DNA of 62,539 nucleotides from Patescibacteria group bacterium UBA7435. GTDB taxonomy: Bacteria > Patescibacteriota > Minisyncoccia > Phycocordibacterales > UBA918. Numbering within the stretch: position 1 is the first letter of the stretch; each line of letters starts with the position of its first letter. Positions 9,099 to 48,739 of this stretch are shown in pieces. The stretch spans positions 1 to 62,539 of the forward strand of contig DLQJ01000005.1 of assembly GCA_002477545.1 (NCBI GenBank). Direction: 5' to 3'. The position numbers and the translations under genes were made by a program. The notes below the pieces were generated by a model. It was not told where the DNA came from. It made no database searches and was given only the letters and a program-made list of their open reading frames with translations.

Positions 9099-9233
9099 TG
9101 CCCACCAGTATAGTGCCACACCACTATTTAGTCTACTAATATAAGACTATTGAATTATTTTTAAAAACAGGTACTATATTCCCTACCTGAGTACATAATA
9201 TGTATTCAAAAGCAGAAGTGCCTTATTGGTACC

Positions 9234-9362
9234 CTGCGCGATTAGCTCAGTTGGTAGAGTGAGAAGTGACCTAACGTCATTTCGCAAGAGGTTACCTAAT
9301 ATTTTGATTTTATGAAAAATATTGATAACCTGAACAGCTTCTGTAAGAAGGCGCATTTACAC
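9234..9362 (+). pseudogene. partial tRNA-Val copy (5' acceptor/D-arm plus anticodon-arm fragment)
   Basis: 9234-9259 is identical to 9399-9424 (tRNA positions 1-24 plus 2 leader nt). 9351-9362 (GCGCATTTACAC) is identical to 9427-9438. No T-arm or 3' acceptor strand is present. Confidence 0.5.
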
Positions 9363-9400: not shown

Positions 9401-9476
9401 GCGCGATTAGCTCAGTTGGTAGAGCAGCGCATTTACACTGCGAAGGTCGGGAGTTCAAATCTCTCATCGCGCACCA
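9401..9476 (+). tRNA. tRNA-Val (anticodon TAC), CCA encoded
   Basis: GCGCGAT acceptor, GCTCAGTTGGTAGAGC D-arm, anticodon loop TTTACAC, GGGAGTTCAAATCTCTC T-arm, ATCGCGC-A-CCA. Confidence 0.9.
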
Positions 9477-21958: not shown

Positions 21959-21968
21959 ATTTTACCAT

Positions 21969-22005
21969 ACTCTATACACAACCTTAGAAAGGTTGTGTAT
22001 AGAGT
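21969..22005. promoter_or_regulatory. perfect 17-bp inverted repeat (3-nt spacer) in a divergent intergenic region
   Basis: ACTCTATACACAACCTT-AGA-AAGGTTGTGTATAGAGT. Lies 10 nt upstream of the start at 21958 (minus) and 64 nt upstream of the start at 22070 (plus). Confidence 0.6.
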
Positions 22006-22069
22006 AAAACCTTCCAGTTTAAAATTTTTCAAATTATTTCCTGTATAATGCATAGATTATAGACACTGT

Positions 22070-23704
22070 ATGGACCAAAATATTCTAAAAAAACACCTGC
22101 ACGAAGCAATTACTGAGAGGGTCTACTTACAATATGGGGATTGTGATTCAATTCATAAAACTACCGGATGGATTTTTGATTTTCGTAATATTATTTTGAC
22201 GCCTGAATACAGCAATATGATTGCGGATATATTCTGGGAAACATACAAAGATTCTTACCCTTTCCAAGTTGGTGGCTTAGAGACAGCTTCAATTCCTATG
22301 ATTAGTGCAATTGTTACTAAAAGTAAAGAGTATGGTAAACCAATCAACGGTTTTTTTATTCGCAAATCTCGAAAGAAGCACGGTCTCTACAACATGATCG
22401 AAGGAAACCTTACCGACGATCCAATTGTCCTAGTAGATGACATCATAAATAGTGGCACAAGCTTCATGCGTTGTTTTGAAGCACTTGATCAATTAGAAAA
22501 ACCGGTGCGTGATATTTTCACGCTTCTGCGTTTCCGTGAAGCGTCATTTTATCGTTTCATTACTGAACGTAAGGTTACACCGCATACAGTCTTCACTCTT
22601 CCGGATTTTAAAATTGATTTCCTGAAAAACAAAAATACCTCTGAACTTGCCCCGTATAATATCGACTGGTATTTCAAAAGCGAAAAACCAAACTTTAAAT
22701 ACGTTGTAGATAAGTCAGCTCCAGTATTGGATGATACAAAACTATACATGGGGAGTGATAATGGTTTTTTCTGGGCACTTAATCAAGTTGACGGGACAGT
22801 CGCTTGGAAAAAGAAAGTAGGATGGCACCCAAAGGGAAAATCTATTTTTTCTACTCCTGTAGTTCATAAGGATGTAGTTTACTTTGGTTCATATGATGGA
22901 AACGTGTATGCGCTTGATACACAGACGGGTAAAAAAAAGTGGATCTTTATGGAAGCTGATTGGGTCGGCTCCTCTCCTGCAATAGCAGATGACCTTGGCT
23001 TACTTTTTATAGGCCTTGAATTCGGTTTGTTTAAAAAACGGGGAGGCATTGCAGCGCTTGATCTTGAAACCGGTAAGAAAAAGTGGGAACACATCACTCC
23101 TGAGATGACCCATTGCTCACCTGCATATGACAAACAAACACAAACATTGGCAATTGGTTCAAATGATAATGTTGCATACGTATACAATGCAAAAAATGGA
23201 AAACTTCGTTGGCAATATGAGACAGGAGGACCCATCAAAAGTCAGCCTGTGTATGACACAGAACGTGGTCAGGTGTTATTCCCCTCATACGACGGTGGGC
23301 TATATATATTTTCTATAAAGTCAGGCAAACTATTGCACACCTTTAAAGCTGATTTTGCACTTTTTGGAATACCCGAAATTGAAGATAAACATGTATATGT
23401 CACTTCTGCTGATAAAAAACTCTACAAAATTAACCTCAGTACATATGAGGTAATTTGGACATATCAAACCACTGCACGAATTTTCTCTTCACCAAAAATA
23501 ATTGATGACCATGTCTATATTGGTTCAAATGATGCGCGCTTATTTAAGATAGATAAAGAAACAGGGAAAGAAGTTACGTACTTCCAAGTAACCGAACGAA
23601 TAACAAACAAAATTGCGCACAATCCTGAGACAAACAAAATATTCTTGCCGACGTTTGCAAACGAAATATATTGTCTATCAGAAATAACTATTCCTAAAAA
23701 ATAA
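22070..23704 (+). CDS. fusion protein: phosphoribosyltransferase domain + PQQ-like beta-propeller repeats
   Basis: PRPP-binding loop PIVLVDDIINSGTS in the N-terminal ~190 aa. The C-terminal ~340 aa has repeated motifs: VYFGSYDGNVYALDTQTGKKKW, AYVYNAKNGKLRWQY, LYIFSIKSGKLL and LYKINLSTYEVIWTY. Confidence 0.8.
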   Translation: MDQNILKKHLHEAITERVYLQYGDCDSIHKTTGWIFDFRNIILTPEYSNMIADIFWETYKDSYPFQVGGLETASIPMISAIVTKSKEYGKPINGFFIRKSRKKHGLYNMIEGNLTDDPIVLVDDIINSGTSFMRCFEALDQLEKPVRDIFTLLRFREASFYRFITERKVTPHTVFTLPDFKIDFLKNKNTSELAPYNIDWYFKSEKPNFKYVVDKSAPVLDDTKLYMGSDNGFFWALNQVDGTVAWKKKVGWHPKGKSIFSTPVVHKDVVYFGSYDGNVYALDTQTGKKKWIFMEADWVGSSPAIADDLGLLFIGLEFGLFKKRGGIAALDLETGKKKWEHITPEMTHCSPAYDKQTQTLAIGSNDNVAYVYNAKNGKLRWQYETGGPIKSQPVYDTERGQVLFPSYDGGLYIFSIKSGKLLHTFKADFALFGIPEIEDKHVYVTSADKKLYKINLSTYEVIWTYQTTARIFSSPKIIDDHVYIGSNDARLFKIDKETGKEVTYFQVTERITNKIAHNPETNKIFLPTFANEIYCLSEITIPKK

Positions 23705-23749
23705 CACCTCGCTATGCGAGGTGTTATTTTTTAGAGCATTTGGGGTATT

Positions 23750-38056: not shown

Positions 38057-39781
38057 ATGCAAAAGTTCGATGACACATTTACTGACGAGCGTATGAGTGA
38101 AATGCGCCGAAAAGAGGAAGATAGTCTCATCCTCTCTCTGGCACAGCAATACGGCTACGAATATGTAGATTTACGTGGGGTTACTATAAACCCTAAAGCA
38201 ATACGCTTGGTTTCTGAAAAAGATGCGCACGCAGGTAATTTAGTTGTTTTTGAAACAACAAGAAAACGTCTTTCAATTGCTATTCGTAATCCTAATAATC
38301 CAAACACTAAAACGGTACTGGAATCACTCAAGGAACAAGGCTACCAACCAACTATCTACATGACCTCGACCACAAGTCTTGAGCATGGCTGGGAACGTTA
38401 TAAAGATCAGAAGCATGGAGTTGCGGTAAAACACGGAGTGCTTGATATTAATACCGACAACATTGCACAGCAAGTTAAAAAGTTTAAAACGCCTGAGGAT
38501 GTTTCTGAACATATTCTTGATATCCGCACCATTAATAGTGCTCGTCGTATTTCTGAAACATTGGAAACTGTTTTTGCTGGAGCAATTGCACTAGGCGCGT
38601 CCGACATTCATATCGAACCTGAGTCTGCTGACATTCGCTTACGCTACCGTCTTGATGGCGTACTATATGACATTGTTGATCTGGAGCTTGAACTCTATAA
38701 ACGCATCATATCACGATTGAAACTGCTTTCGAGCATGATTCTCAATGTAAAAAGCGAAGCACAAGATGGACGTTTTACATTTAATCTCACTGACAAAAGT
38801 GTTGAAGTGCGATCATCAGTAATTCCTGGAGCTGCCGGAGAATCTATGGTGATGCGATTACTTGATCCAAGTGTCGCAAGCTTCAGTATGGAGAACCTCG
38901 GTTTAAATAGTATTCTGCATGGAGTACTCACCAAAGAACTGAAGCGACCAAATGGACTTATTGTAACTACCGGTCCAACAGGAAGTGGTAAAACCACGGC
39001 GTTGTATGCATTCTTGCAGGAGGTACATGAAGAAGGAATTAAAATTATTACTATTGAAAATCCAGTTGAATACAAAATTGATAACATCGTACAAACACAG
39101 GTAAGCGACGACTATACATTTGAGTCAGGACTACGTGCAATACTGCGACAAGACCCTGATGTGATTATGGTTGGTGAGATCCGTGATCGTGAAGTAGCTG
39201 AGACCGCAATTCATGCGGCACAAACAGGACACTTAGTTTTCTCTACATTACACACCAACAGTGCGGTGGGTGCATTTCCGCGATTGATTGACCTTGGCGT
39301 TGATTATCGAATGATTGGTAGCTCGGTAAATATCATTTTGGGACAACGCTTAGTTCGTGTTTTGTGTGAACATTGCAAACAATCGCATCCAGTAAATCAG
39401 AACGAGCACGATGCCATCACACAGGTACTTGCAACACATCCAAAACCCCCTACTGTTCCTGATCCTATTATCATTTATGAAGCAGAAGGGTGTGAACACT
39501 GCAATCAGTCTGGATTCAAAGGGCGTCAAGGAGTCTACGAAGCGGTCTTGGTGGATACTGCTGTTGAAGAAGCAGTTATACGTGACCCACGTGAGCACAT
39601 CATTCTTGAAGCTGCAAAACCACAAGGCATCCCCACGATGGCTGAAGATGGAATTGAGAAGGTACTCAATGGCACTACTTCACTTACAGAACTACAACGT
39701 GTGGTTGACCTTACTTCGGGACGACATACCCTTAAAACAGAAGGTACTGTAGACGACACCTTCTCTTCACATGTCGTGTAA
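38057..39781 (+). CDS. pilB: type IV pilus assembly ATPase PilB (GspE family)
   Basis: Walker A GPTGSGKTT, Asp box, Walker B DPDVIMVGEIRD, His box HLVFSTLHTN, and a CxxC...CxxC cluster (CEHCKQ...CEHCNQ). Confidence 0.9.
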   Translation: MQKFDDTFTDERMSEMRRKEEDSLILSLAQQYGYEYVDLRGVTINPKAIRLVSEKDAHAGNLVVFETTRKRLSIAIRNPNNPNTKTVLESLKEQGYQPTIYMTSTTSLEHGWERYKDQKHGVAVKHGVLDINTDNIAQQVKKFKTPEDVSEHILDIRTINSARRISETLETVFAGAIALGASDIHIEPESADIRLRYRLDGVLYDIVDLELELYKRIISRLKLLSSMILNVKSEAQDGRFTFNLTDKSVEVRSSVIPGAAGESMVMRLLDPSVASFSMENLGLNSILHGVLTKELKRPNGLIVTTGPTGSGKTTALYAFLQEVHEEGIKIITIENPVEYKIDNIVQTQVSDDYTFESGLRAILRQDPDVIMVGEIRDREVAETAIHAAQTGHLVFSTLHTNSAVGAFPRLIDLGVDYRMIGSSVNIILGQRLVRVLCEHCKQSHPVNQNEHDAITQVLATHPKPPTVPDPIIIYEAEGCEHCNQSGFKGRQGVYEAVLVDTAVEEAVIRDPREHIILEAAKPQGIPTMAEDGIEKVLNGTTSLTELQRVVDLTSGRHTLKTEGTVDDTFSSHVV

Positions 39782-40349
39782 CACAACCATGTCACCACGA
39801 TTTAAAAAAATAATTATTTTCTTTGGCGTACTTCTACTCATTGTTGGTTTTTTAGTATTTCTAAAGTATGTATCTCCCGAAGCGTTGGTATTGAAACTCG
39901 GTGTACAAAATGGATATCTCCTTATTTTCTTCACCGCGCTACTAGGTGGTTTATCTGCAAGTGGCTCTATTATTTTTATAACGCTTTTGGTCACTCTTGT
40001 TGCGGGAGGGCTTAATCCTTTATACGCTGGACTTTTAACCGGTGCAGGATTGATTATCGGGGACCTGCTTATGTTTTACATCGGATCACACGGTAGAGCA
40101 TTGGTAACAGGAAAGGTTGATCAATACATAACTAATTTCGCTTCGCATATCAAGGAGAAACGTTCGTTACAAATTCTCGCTCCAATACTTGGATATTTTT
40201 ATATTGGCTTTGCGCCGTTACCCAATGAATTTCCAGTGCTCTTTTTTGCCGTCATTAAGTATCCCGTGAAGCGAGTATTTACAATTATTATCTTAGGTGA
40301 CATTACGTTTGCACTTATGGTTGCCTATCTTGGTAGTACGCTGTACTAA
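39771..40349 (+). CDS. polytopic membrane protein (DedA/VTT-like, tentative)
   Basis: 192 aa with 5-6 hydrophobic helices. Overlaps the pilB stop by 11 nt. Confidence 0.6.
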   Translation: MSCNTTMSPRFKKIIIFFGVLLLIVGFLVFLKYVSPEALVLKLGVQNGYLLIFFTALLGGLSASGSIIFITLLVTLVAGGLNPLYAGLLTGAGLIIGDLLMFYIGSHGRALVTGKVDQYITNFASHIKEKRSLQILAPILGYFYIGFAPLPNEFPVLFFAVIKYPVKRVFTIIILGDITFALMVAYLGSTLY

Positions 40350-40371
40350 CAAAATATAGATAAAAAATTAA

Positions 40372-40815
40372 AAAACCACTCGGTCAAGAGTAGTTTTTTA
40401 ATTCTCGTGGTAGTATCAAATAAGCAAAGGAGCCGAGGCGACTATTGCGAATTTGCCCTAGTTTTTAAGGAGACCAAAGTCGACTATAAAAACGGAAATA
40501 CCCCTGGGGTGCTGTTCCGATTTTCTTCCTTACAGGAACTGTCCACTTTGTCACCATTTTCTAAAGAAAATGGTAAGCAAAGTCTTGAGAACTAACATTG
40601 AGTCAGTTCTCACCCTTGAGAAAATCGCTGGACCGGAAATAAGAAGCGTTCATACAGAAATCGGAAAGAAGTTCCAGTAGATAATCCTCTAAGCAGAACT
40701 TCCGGAAAGAAGAGATTGCGAAACTAAGGAAGACCGCAGCATTCTCACTCGAAGGTGAGCGCCACGGAATACTCGCAAAGCAACCTTTTGTTGTTTAGAG
40801 GATTATACACTTGAA
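40372..40815. ncRNA. candidate structured noncoding unit A (novel, strand uncertain)
   Basis: No credible ORF. Nested helices: 40681-40692/40795-40806 (12 bp), 40716-40721/40773-40778 (6 bp), 40744-40748/40755-40759 (5 bp). Module 40526-40635 is homologous to 40995-41100. Hairpin with T-run readable on the minus strand at 40375-40410. Confidence 0.35.
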
Positions 40816-40825
40816 CAGAAAAGAA

Positions 40826-41255
40826 AAACCGCAAGCACTTCTTGCGAGTATCATTTCATATTCTTTCTGAAAGAGAGCAGCACCACATCGGTGCAGGAAC
40901 GTTCTATGTGCATCATATTAGCACAGTCTATAGTTTTGTCAAGTGAAATAATGACCGAAGGTCATATATTAAACTTGTGCCTCAATTTGACCCTTTCCTT
41001 ACAAAAACTGTACACCTTATCAATCTTTTCTAAAGAAAATACTAGGTAAGGTCTTGCGAACCGACGTTAAGTCAGTTCTCACCTAGGGCGAATTGCTAGG
41101 CCACCTTTGTTACTTGTGCTGAACTCACTTTTTAGAGCGAACTACGGGATTCCCTTTCGATAATGAATCGCTGGACCGTTCAAGAAACGACTGCATCTGC
41201 GCAGACACATAGGTAATTGGTCAATACCCCCTTTCTACGGTATACGATACAATAC
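40826..41255. ncRNA. candidate structured noncoding unit B (diverged copy of unit A)
   Basis: Module 40995-41100 plus 41166-41178 is about 78% identical to 40526-40635, with an insertion of about 70-80 nt. Hairpins GCACC/GGTGC, TGTGC/GCACA, ATGACC/GGTCAT. CGCAAG/CTTGCG (40830-40846) is preceded by an A-run, giving a T-run on the minus strand. Confidence 0.35.
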
Positions 41256-41262
41256 AGACACT

Positions 41263-42264
41263 ATGAGTGATTCTGAAAATACCCCACAAACATTTACCCG
41301 TGATGGTGCGGGTAACCTTGACCAAACACTACGCCCAAATACATGGGAGGAGTATGTTGGACAGGTGAAAACAAAAGAGAATCTGCGTATTCTCCTTACT
41401 GCCGCGCGCGAACGTGGACATGCCGCTGAACACATTCTTTTATATGGACCTCCCGGTTTAGGGAAGACGACATTGGCACACCTTATTTCAAAAACACTAG
41501 GCACCAACATGCGTACCACTTCAGGGCCTGCTATTGAACGCGTGGGTGACCTTGCAGCAATCCTTACCAACCTCTCTCCTGGGGATGTACTTTTTATTGA
41601 TGAGATTCATCGCTTGAGCAAGAGTATTGAGGAAGTGCTCTATCCCGCTATGGAATCAGGGGTACTTGATATCATTATCGGGAAAGGTCCCTCTGCTCGA
41701 ACAGTACAACTTGAACTTCCTCCATTTACATTAGTCTCAGCAACCACTCGCATTTCACTGCTTTCAGCACCACTGCGAAGTCGTTTCTCTGGAGGGACCT
41801 TCCGGCTTGAATTTTATAAAGACAGTGAAATTTCACAAATCCTCGCGCGATCCGCTGAATTGCTTGGTGTATCAACCTCGCAAGAAATTATGGATAGTAT
41901 CGCAAAGCGATGTCGTGCAACACCGCGCACCGCAAACTATCTTCTAAAACGCTGTCGGGACTTAGCACAACTTGAGAGCGGTGAACTGACCACTGATATT
42001 ATTGATCGTACTTTTGAGCTACTTGAAATCGATTCTCTTGGTCTCGGGAGTCCTGACCGCGAAGTACTTGATACCATCATCAATAAATTTAATGGAGGGC
42101 CTGTGGGACTTAACACCATTGCTGCGGCAACCGGCGAAGAACAATCAACCATTGAGGACGTGATCGAACCATACCTTATCCGACAAGGACTTCTTGAACG
42201 AACACCTCGAGGCCGTATTGCAAGCGCTACTGCGTATAGTCACATTGAAAATCAGACAGAATAA
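41263..42264 (+). CDS. ruvB: Holliday junction DNA helicase RuvB
   Basis: Walker A GPPGLGKTTLA, Walker B LFIDEIHRL, sensor ATTR, and a C-terminal winged helix. Confidence 0.95.
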   Translation: MSDSENTPQTFTRDGAGNLDQTLRPNTWEEYVGQVKTKENLRILLTAARERGHAAEHILLYGPPGLGKTTLAHLISKTLGTNMRTTSGPAIERVGDLAAILTNLSPGDVLFIDEIHRLSKSIEEVLYPAMESGVLDIIIGKGPSARTVQLELPPFTLVSATTRISLLSAPLRSRFSGGTFRLEFYKDSEISQILARSAELLGVSTSQEIMDSIAKRCRATPRTANYLLKRCRDLAQLESGELTTDIIDRTFELLEIDSLGLGSPDREVLDTIINKFNGGPVGLNTIAAATGEEQSTIEDVIEPYLIRQGLLERTPRGRIASATAYSHIENQTE

Positions 42265-48601: not shown

Positions 48602-48739
48602 GGGTTTATATTAAACAGTTATCAGCTTGAGAGATACTGCTAATCAGGTTTACTAAGCAATTAATCTTCAGGTTCCAGCGATTTTCTCAGGGGAGAAAAA
48701 TCAGGAACTAAATAGATAATAGGCCCTTTGGGCCTTTAT

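Follow-up and report, generated by a model that had tools for sequence, protein, structure and literature searches.

Bacteria of the Candidate Phyla Radiation (CPR), or Patescibacteria, make up a huge and mostly uncultured branch with tiny genomes, and to our knowledge almost none of their non-coding RNAs have been characterized. The described systems that come closest to the locus analyzed here are, on one side, the orphan non-coding RNAs (raiA motif RNA, ROOL, OLE and GOLLD), the Y RNA or YrlA that is the partner of Ro60-like Rsr, and 6S RNA, and, on the other, small dispersed repeats such as the Rickettsia palindromic elements (RPEs), the small dispersed repeats of cyanobacteria and the Correia elements. 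Our locus is a gap free of open reading frames (ORFs), at positions 40350-41262 between an ORF encoding a VTT domain and ruvB (41263-42264, plus strand), in a 62,539-nt stretch of contig DLQJ01000005.1 from Patescibacteria group bacterium UBA7435, hereafter the window. This gap is a composite. Its central part, 40671-40816, is one structured non-coding RNA gene of about 146 nt on the minus strand (40816 to 40671), which belongs to a previously undescribed family spread across Paceibacteria/Parcubacteria, and on either side of this gene lies an insertion of dispersed, multi-copy structured repeats, designated X and Y.

With the orphan RNAs, the element shares a lineage-restricted and intricate fold, a promoter and a terminator of its own, and strong covariation. 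It differs from them in its host lineage (CPR/Paceibacteria), in its architecture and in having no match in Rfam 15, and it is smaller than ROOL, OLE and GOLLD. As in Y RNA and YrlA, a long end stem is the most conserved part and a multi-helix module lies at the far end, but tRNA-like T-arm or D-arm sequences are missing and, here too, no Rfam match was obtained. The Rfam 15 search used 4227 models, including those for RNase P, tmRNA, riboswitches, ribozymes and the raiA, ROOL and OLE RNAs. At the gathering score it returned tRNAs alone in the window, and on both strands it gave no match to the element or to X and Y at E values up to 10 in the window, nor to the element at E values up to 5 in five homologous loci. 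A full-text search of the literature found no description of the RNA or of the X/Y repeats. These results bear out an earlier note, made from the sequence of the window, which had proposed that an undescribed structured RNA resides in this region. The 5S rRNA, RNase P RNA, tmRNA, T-box, Y RNA and self-cleaving ribozymes were rejected as candidates, as their conserved motifs are absent by eye and no Rfam match was seen; a phage origin was likewise set aside, as blastn of the gap against a phage collection gave no match. In domain IV of the RNA of the signal recognition particle (SRP), a symmetric loop (AGG / AGCA) lies three base pairs below a GNRA-type tetraloop, and there is an asymmetric loop as well. 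The apical loops of our element are instead UUCG, CUUG or U-rich, with the nearest internal irregularity 5-7 bp below, and a regular-expression scan for the SRP motif over 2.2 Mb of loci found one unrelated match and none in the element. With the domain IV motifs absent and no Rfam SRP match, this candidate was rejected as well.

When the gap was compared with the ruvB loci of relatives by blastn and nhmmer, only about 40663-40817 matched, so that the conserved part is the middle of the gap, and no ORF is conserved. A pattern built from three sequences retrieved 11 genome loci, and a looser pattern based on helix P2 (see below) retrieved at least 120 species-level genomes, with one match per contig and nearly all of them Patescibacteria; the matched assemblies are labeled Kaiser-, Adler-, Taylor-, Zambryski-, Vogel- and Nomurabacteria, Paceibacterota and Minisyncoccia. 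Two covariance models were made, R1 from 12 close sequences and R2 from 59 diverse ones, and the window element scores 157 bits with the first and 89 bits with the second. R1 locates the element beside ruvB in loci L003-L017, while R2 also matches loci of Ryanbacteria (L015, 58 bits) and Sungbacteria (L019, 40 bits), with no match in four other CPR loci (L018, L020, L029 and L049) or in non-CPR ruvB loci. Between them, the two models place the element beside ruvB in L001-L017 and L019. The usual gene order is pilB, element, ruvB, and three loci retain pilB and the element with another neighbor in place of ruvB. The window itself comes from a member of the CPR/Patescibacteria near Kaiserbacteria. 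Its RuvB shows 81-82% identity to the proteins of two Kaiserbacteria-like assemblies and 63-70% to those of other Parcubacteria. Weak matches to the models were also seen elsewhere in the window, at 23680-23746 and 21967-22007 (both minus strand; 27 bits with R1 and 20 bits with R2). These are short GC-poor hairpins and are most likely spurious, matching only the closing stem of the model.

The RNA locus or X repeats were also encountered on contigs that carry non-CPR labels and whose pilB and ruvB are 77-83% identical to those of the window. These include L089, L215, L235 and others (JBLHQB01, 'Patiriisocius sp.'), L085 and L221 ('Acidimicrobiales'), L099 and L224 ('Azotimanducaceae'), L109 and L276 ('Planctomycetaceae') and L166 ('Lachnospiraceae'). 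Such contigs are probably mis-binned Patescibacteria, and the RNA locus could serve as a marker of binning errors of this kind, as with the Patiriisocius, Acidimicrobiales, Planctomycetaceae and Lachnospiraceae labels.

The structure of the RNA was derived from about 99 members, which were parsed by anchors and then aligned with MAFFT and with a covariance model (alignments A5 and A6). The counts that follow are from A6, which holds 59 sequences with a mutual similarity below 80%, and in which 39 pairs were counted in RNA orientation. Standard pairs occupy 93.4% of the cells, versus 80.3% in shuffles (none of 500 reaches the observed value) and 35-54% with slid partners; double changes occur in 28 of the 39 pairs, and the covariation score is 0.412, versus 0.161 in shuffles and 0.09-0.13 for slid partners. 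The inner helices covary even though their sequences are wholly different between members. The covariation that would be expected of the helices around 40681-40806, if the earlier note was right about them, is therefore present in relatives. Folding of the gap as a whole also exceeds chance, with z-scores of -4.1 to -4.9 for its segments (none of 200 shuffles folds as well) and nine terminator-like hairpins observed where 1.1 are expected from shuffles; its description as hairpin-dense was accurate, and the complementary segments listed for it all exist where they had been placed.

Both ends of the RNA are drawn together by a closing stem of about 23 bp, formed by P1 (40671-40678 with 40809-40816 in plus-strand coordinates, as for all helices here), which is about 7 bp long across the family, and P2 (40681-40695 with 40792-40806). 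The latter had been recognized as a 12-bp helix, ATAATCCTCTAA at 40681-40692 with TTAGAGGATTAT at 40795-40806, and is in fact 15 bp long; its family form has 15-17 bp (AUAAAUCUCUAAGCAAU / AUUGCUUAGAGAUUUAU), of which the inner ten pairs, the duplex CUCUAAGCAA/UUGCUUAGAG, are almost invariant. Beyond P2 the window RNA opens into a compact three-way junction, which in most relatives becomes four-way through P7, an optional hairpin that the window's subgroup does not have. P3 (about 40699-40711) is an AU-rich hairpin, ACUUUU...AAAAGU. The long G·U-rich arm begins with P4a (40716-40721 with 40773-40778), a helix between the two strands on either side of the arm, and continues through P4 (AGG/CCU) and P5, a G·U-rich helix that holds conserved CUGG motifs (P4 and P5 together at about 40727-40740 with 40761-40773), to the apical hairpin P6 (40744-40749 with 40754-40759), often capped by UUCG. 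Against shuffles, the folding of this arm has a mean z-score of -2.5. Two segments pointed out before, TTGCGA/TCGCAA and CTCAC/GTGAG, correspond to P4a and P6, and covariation supports the 12-bp helix of P2, P6 and the region of P4a. The segments GAAGTTC and GAACTTC exist as well, but their proposed pairing was not supported, since GTTC at 40671-40674 pairs with GAAC at 40813-40816 in P1, and the other hairpins noticed at that time (CGCAAG/CTTGCG among them) are real but belong to flanking leader or repeat sequence.

The signals around this fold indicate that it is transcribed on the strand opposite to ruvB. Promoters were sought in 95 loci as at least five of six matches to TTGACA, a 16-18-nt spacer and TAnnnT, and 73 of them have one that runs opposite to ruvB and lies on the element's ruvB flank, versus 12 with a ruvB-strand promoter on the pilB side and 3-4 at control positions. 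In the same loci, intrinsic terminators past the element number 25 on the opposite strand versus five on the ruvB strand. Promoter and terminator frame the fold tightly, many loci having 5-25 nt between the end of the -10 box and P1, and 4-6 nt between P1 and the start of the terminator. In the window, the promoter is of sigma-70 type (40915-40942, minus strand; TTGACA, 16 nt, TAATAT, with a TG extension), and transcription would start near 40908. A leader (40817-40907), with hairpins at 40880-40894 and 40829-40847 and 90% identity to locus L089, then connects the promoter to the core (40671-40816), the sole part of the gap kept in relatives. On the other side, a trailer (40635-40670) that is collinear with L089 runs from the core to repeat module A, the junction of which was mapped against the empty site in L089. 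A bidirectional intrinsic terminator, conserved in L089 and L085, follows at 40363-40406; on the plus strand it ends the pilB/VTT operon, and on the minus strand it is the first strong terminator past the RNA and module A. The terminator scan also picked up a minus-strand hairpin, AUGACC(UUCG)GGUCAU, with a U-rich tail at 40951-40965, between module B and the promoter.

The element is an independent RNA gene, with a near-consensus promoter and a compact, end-closed, covarying fold, kept across a class of bacteria with reduced genomes. Because such a promoter and such an intricate fold have been retained under genome shrinkage, the RNA is very likely important to its hosts. We infer that it would be a stable, abundantly made RNA acting in trans, and our best guess is that it might serve as a protein-binding scaffold, recognized by way of P2, with its invariant duplex, and of the arm with the conserved CUGG. 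Taken together, the anatomy described here and the reading of the product as a stable trans-acting RNA seem to us probable, whereas our confidence in any one particular partner is much lower. A bolder proposal, in which the RNA is a new housekeeping-type RNA of Paceibacteria, a class that accounts for much of the CPR, with a dedicated protein partner, and in which, separately, X is a new structured mobile element, is possible, and we put it forward tentatively. If it were true, this RNA function would have no counterpart among the known universal bacterial RNAs and might possibly compensate for losses in reduced genomes. Regardless of function, an RNA present in at least 120 species-level genomes offers a concrete target for metatranscriptomics, pull-downs and structural work in the few cultivated Paceibacteria, and with its covariance model an intergenic region that is now blank can be annotated in thousands of metagenome-assembled genomes.

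We acknowledge that several observations weigh against reading the element as a stable, minus-strand, trans-acting RNA. The strand, ends and abundance of the RNA are all deduced from sequence. In P1 and P2, the counts of G·U and A·C cells are 32 and 31, hence strand-neutral, and one conserved U·G, seen in 47 of 60 sequences, is present on the ruvB strand alone, which we regard as an unpaired A/C position beside P4. In the window's subgroup, a terminator-like hairpin with a U-run lies between promoter and core; in the window this is the leader hairpin at 40829-40847 followed by the U-run at 40819-40828, and similar leader hairpins occur in 21 of the 95 loci. The same subgroup has an extended -10 motif on the plus strand on the pilB side (TGGTAGTAT at 40409-40417 in the window; consensus TGCTATAGT among Kaiserbacteria-like members), which may represent a plus-strand, ruvB-directed promoter. 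Because of this hairpin and this motif, the transcript layout in the window's subgroup is less certain. The window copy, moreover, may be made as a longer transcript, as module A separates the RNA from its terminator. Finally, the near-invariance of the P2 duplex could stem from some role other than the binding of a protein.

The likeliest rival to a stable trans-acting RNA, although we consider it unlikely, is that the element is mainly a regulator of ruvB in cis, which would act by competition between promoters, by collision of transcription or by RNase III cleavage of a sense-antisense duplex. The two genes are in fact closely entangled. The RNA lies beside ruvB in most loci, and a conserved ATGTCAA on the ruvB side reads, in reverse complement, as the -35 box of the RNA promoter. 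In 30 of 80 loci the ATG of this sequence opens the RuvB ORF, so that codons 1-2 of ruvB, read in reverse complement, give the -35 box. Given this double use, the two genes are transcribed head to head, and their control regions overlap. The overlap was seen in L129, L135, L096 and 27 other loci, and the equivalent position in the window is 40937-40942. Under the favored trans-acting reading as well, transcription of the RNA would probably compete with ruvB expression, because the RNA promoter overlaps the start of ruvB. Any ruvB transcript coming from the pilB side would be fully antisense to the RNA, and the window's subgroup has the plus-strand extended -10 motif upstream. On the other hand, the RNA and its promoter are kept in three loci without ruvB as a neighbor (L082, L087 and L088), and in L088 the TTGACA is retained without the ATG, which argues that the box is conserved for the sake of the RNA. 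Pure interference, in addition, needs no intricate covarying fold, conserved loops or UUCG caps, and in the window module B puts about 320 nt between the promoter and the ruvB start. The short AT-rich stretch ahead of the ruvB ATG contains no obvious Shine-Dalgarno sequence, and for this reason ruvB may be leaderless or very short-leadered in these bacteria.

A second possibility, which we judge a little less likely again, is that the element is a highly diverged 6S RNA of this lineage, that is, a mimic of an open promoter which would sequester the sigma-70 RNA polymerase holoenzyme and yield a product RNA from the conserved P2 strand. 6S RNA (ssrS; RF00013 and lineage-specific 6S-like RNAs) has a comparable size, a long stem closing it end to end and an elongated shape with an internal arm, and the likeness extends to an apparent single copy, presence throughout the lineage and a very strong sigma-70 promoter. 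With a core of 146-190 nt among members and about 23 bp in P1 and P2, the element does form the end-closed, largely double-stranded rod of about 150-200 nt that is typical of 6S RNA, and a product RNA could be templated by the invariant sequence in the inner part of that stem. No canonical 6S RNA was found in 144 kb of Paceibacteria sequence, where the Rfam scan returned only tRNAs, a 16S rRNA and one group I intron, a sample too small to show absence or to decide on housekeeping RNAs. However, the large single-stranded central bubble of 6S RNA is missing from the element, where P4a together with P3, and with P7 if present, fills a tight three- or four-way junction. The pairing of the junction strands in P4a is backed by a permutation test, in which duplexes with their own partners have a mean energy of -7.46 kcal/mol, as compared to -4.87 ± 0.24 kcal/mol with permuted partners (none of 300 as low). 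The Rfam 6S and 6S-like models find no match to the element on either strand at E values up to 10 in the window and up to 5 in five homologous loci, and the concentration of conservation in a duplex, P2, is untypical of 6S RNA. Membership in the 6S family was rejected on the ground that the junction strands pair and leave no open bubble.

It is very unlikely, in our opinion, that the element acts on the plus strand instead, as part of the pilB 3' untranslated region or the ruvB 5' leader, in a riboswitch-like or protein-bound form. The plus-strand orientation was in fact our own initial choice, based on the G·U pairs of the 12 closest sequences and on the TGCTATAGT motif, which lies 25-35 nt upstream in the subgroup, and it was dropped after counting G·U and A·C cells and scanning the flanks for promoters and terminators; the tetraloops and the wobble pairs of P5 agree with this decision. 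The position between pilB and ruvB, both on the plus strand, is conserved, and the U·G exclusive to the plus strand would also fit. Covariation on that strand is strong as well (92% pairing and double changes in 29 of 36 pairs with the same helices), because the helices are symmetric. Against this, promoters and terminators favor the minus strand by the numbers given above (73 versus 12 loci, and 25 versus 5). P5 is particularly telling, for in the minus-strand reading pair 78-110 is UG in 45 sequences, CG in 8 and UA in 3, pair 75-113 is UG in 18, UA in 17 and CG in 12, and pair 76-112 is UA in 17, UG in 16 and CG in 14, a series that on the ruvB strand turns into C·A mismatches, with 16-18 C·A cells per pair. 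P5 therefore pairs well on the minus strand alone, which points to the strand opposite ruvB. The tetraloops of P6 and P7 are C(UUCG)G or U(UUCG)G in 16 cases and CUUG in 7 when read on the minus strand, loops that are lost on the ruvB strand, where GNRA is seen in 5. A closing stem of 23 bp is also unlike a P1 helix that switches, and a riboswitch or cis leader of ruvB was rejected for lying on the wrong strand and because the element is kept where ruvB is not adjacent. The minus-strand reading, already favored by the earlier note, is thus borne out by promoters, terminators, wobble series and tetraloops alike.

That the conserved block is a DNA-level element (a cruciform, or a recombination or replication site), or else a decayed protein gene, appears highly improbable: the long, near-perfect inverted repeat, its conserved sequence and the equal G·U and A·C counts of P1 and P2 would suit a DNA element, but the strand-specific wobble of P5, the framing promoter and terminator, the stable RNA tetraloops and the inner helices that covary despite different sequences all speak against this reading. 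A protein gene was rejected for want of a conserved ORF. In agreement with the earlier note, the gap holds no credible ORF, the largest being a 62-aa GTG ORF at 40407-40595.

The least credible alternative is that the gap contains two tandem paralogous non-coding RNA genes of about 440 nt with their own terminators, as had been suggested from an 89-nt repeat (40526-40614 versus 40995-41083, 80% identity) recurring at a 469-nt period, with a minus-strand hairpin and T-run after each copy, since the two units have only the X/Y repeat in common, which is dispersed (9259-9351 and 80 loci), the conserved RNA occurs once, in one unit and outside the repeat, and the L089 locus is without either copy. 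The repeat and its period are real, and the second unit is indeed longer, as AATCGCTGGACCG occurs twice, 543 nt apart, which leaves about 74 extra nucleotides in the second unit. The so-called tandem units are nonetheless inserted copies of structured repeats that are dispersed and multi-copy, with X lying inside Y, rather than parts of paralogous RNA genes; the period results from two module insertions, with no need for paralogous genes, and the hairpin and T-run at 40816-40846, taken at the time for the end of the second unit, lie in the leader between the RNA promoter and the core.

Module A (40437-40634, minus strand; z-score -4.6) consists of Y (GGTCCAGCGATTTTC...GAAAATCGG...CAATAGTCG) with X nested in the hairpin loop (X core 40525-40613). 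It is inserted between the 3' side of the RNA and the bidirectional terminator, with both junctions mapped against L089. Module B (40994-41178, minus strand; X core 40994-41082) lies between the ruvB start and the RNA promoter, and is made of two Y-like hairpins, one starting at 41177 and the other with X nested inside. In L089, the genes of which are 77-83% identical to those of the window, the terminator, RNA and ruvB are collinear with the window, the VTT gene and both modules are missing, and the equivalent of window 40944-41215 is absent. Window 40439-40634, meanwhile, is 91% identical to L089:2256-2451, a segment located between ruvB and yebC. A third copy of the X core lies in the window at 9259-9351 (plus strand). 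X is about 90 nt long and starts with an almost invariant hairpin, GAGAAGUGAC-NNAAY-GUCACUUCGC, followed by AAGA, a variable hairpin, a GNACAG motif and a last hairpin with a UGUAAG loop; among 16 diverse copies, 17 of its 31 pairs show double changes. A 23-base X pattern matched 80 loci, all of them in Patescibacteria, including at least eight contigs in one relative and six in another. Y (GGTCCAGCGAUUUUC...GAAAAUCGGGACA...AAUAGUCGC) hosts X in its loop in both window modules and also occurs alone, with 26 copies in 20 sources. A solo Y was noticed in the window at 48672-48720 (plus strand; GGTCCAGCGATTTTC-loop-GAAAATCGGGACA...AATAGTCGC), followed by a terminator hairpin, and the ends of Y, AGCGAUU and AAUCGCU, can pair in competition with the hairpin of Y itself.

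As regards the nature of these repeats, X and Y resemble miniature inverted-repeat transposable elements in being present as many dispersed copies, the presence or absence of which varies among relatives, but they do not show the terminal inverted repeats and short target-site duplications of such elements: terminal inverted repeats were recognized neither on X nor on Y, and module A has no clean target-site duplication. When the ORFs within 600 nt of X copies were clustered (n = 148), the largest cluster had three members, and no linked transposase or reverse transcriptase was found. With the RPEs, the small dispersed repeats of cyanobacteria and the Correia elements, X and Y share a size of about 90-200 nt, a multi-copy and structured nature, nesting in hairpin loops, insertion in intergenic regions and RNA genes, and the lack of a linked transposase. 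X differs in having neither terminal inverted repeats nor short target-site duplications, in its strand-specific structure and in that it often follows a 20-80-nt duplicate of the 5' part of a tRNA, 5S rRNA or msrA gene. Such a duplicate of the target's 5' part directly precedes 14 of 74 X copies, and the intact copy of the duplicated gene lies 100-450 nt downstream. If X is indeed a new mobile element, it would target structured RNA genes (tRNA, 5S rRNA) and the 5' ends of genes, and would leave a truncated, X-bearing copy upstream of an intact one, by a mechanism unlike known bacterial transposition. X and Y show that even CPR genomes of about 1 Mb carry active small structured repeats, which insert into tRNA and 5S rRNA genes and gene starts with an unusual duplication signature, and this might possibly represent a new kind of genome plasticity.

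The VTT-domain ORF (39771-40349, plus strand), between pilB (38057-39781, plus strand) and the gap, has an 11-nt overlap with the pilB stop. It is missing from the otherwise collinear L089 locus, where pilB leads directly to the shared terminator, and is a recent gain or loss of a gene beside repeat insertions.

Some additional observations concern the sites of X. In the window, the copy at 9259-9351 is preceded by the first 26 nt of a tRNA-Val (9231-9256) and followed by a decayed remnant of the anticodon and T arms and then by the intact tRNA-Val (9401-9476). The same signature was seen in L211, L275, L246, L235, L238, L282, L231, L233 and L251; the targets also include 5S rRNA, further tRNAs (in some cases on the complementary strand) and roughly the first 13 codons of an msrA-like gene, and X always starts right after a G. 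In L227 (coordinates 81-319 and 480-589, both minus strand), an X copy placed after a tRNA 5' half, with an insertion in its own last hairpin, is followed closely downstream by a group I intron (Rfam, 79.9 bits), so that several intervening elements are nested in one tRNA locus. A third recurrent module, ...GTGCTTAGTAnnAT-hairpin-ATTATACTTAGCAACTCGTGACC, often comes after X, as in L214, L245, L228, L243, L252, L268, L285, L286 and L219, and there are therefore several families of small structured repeats, which combine in mosaics.

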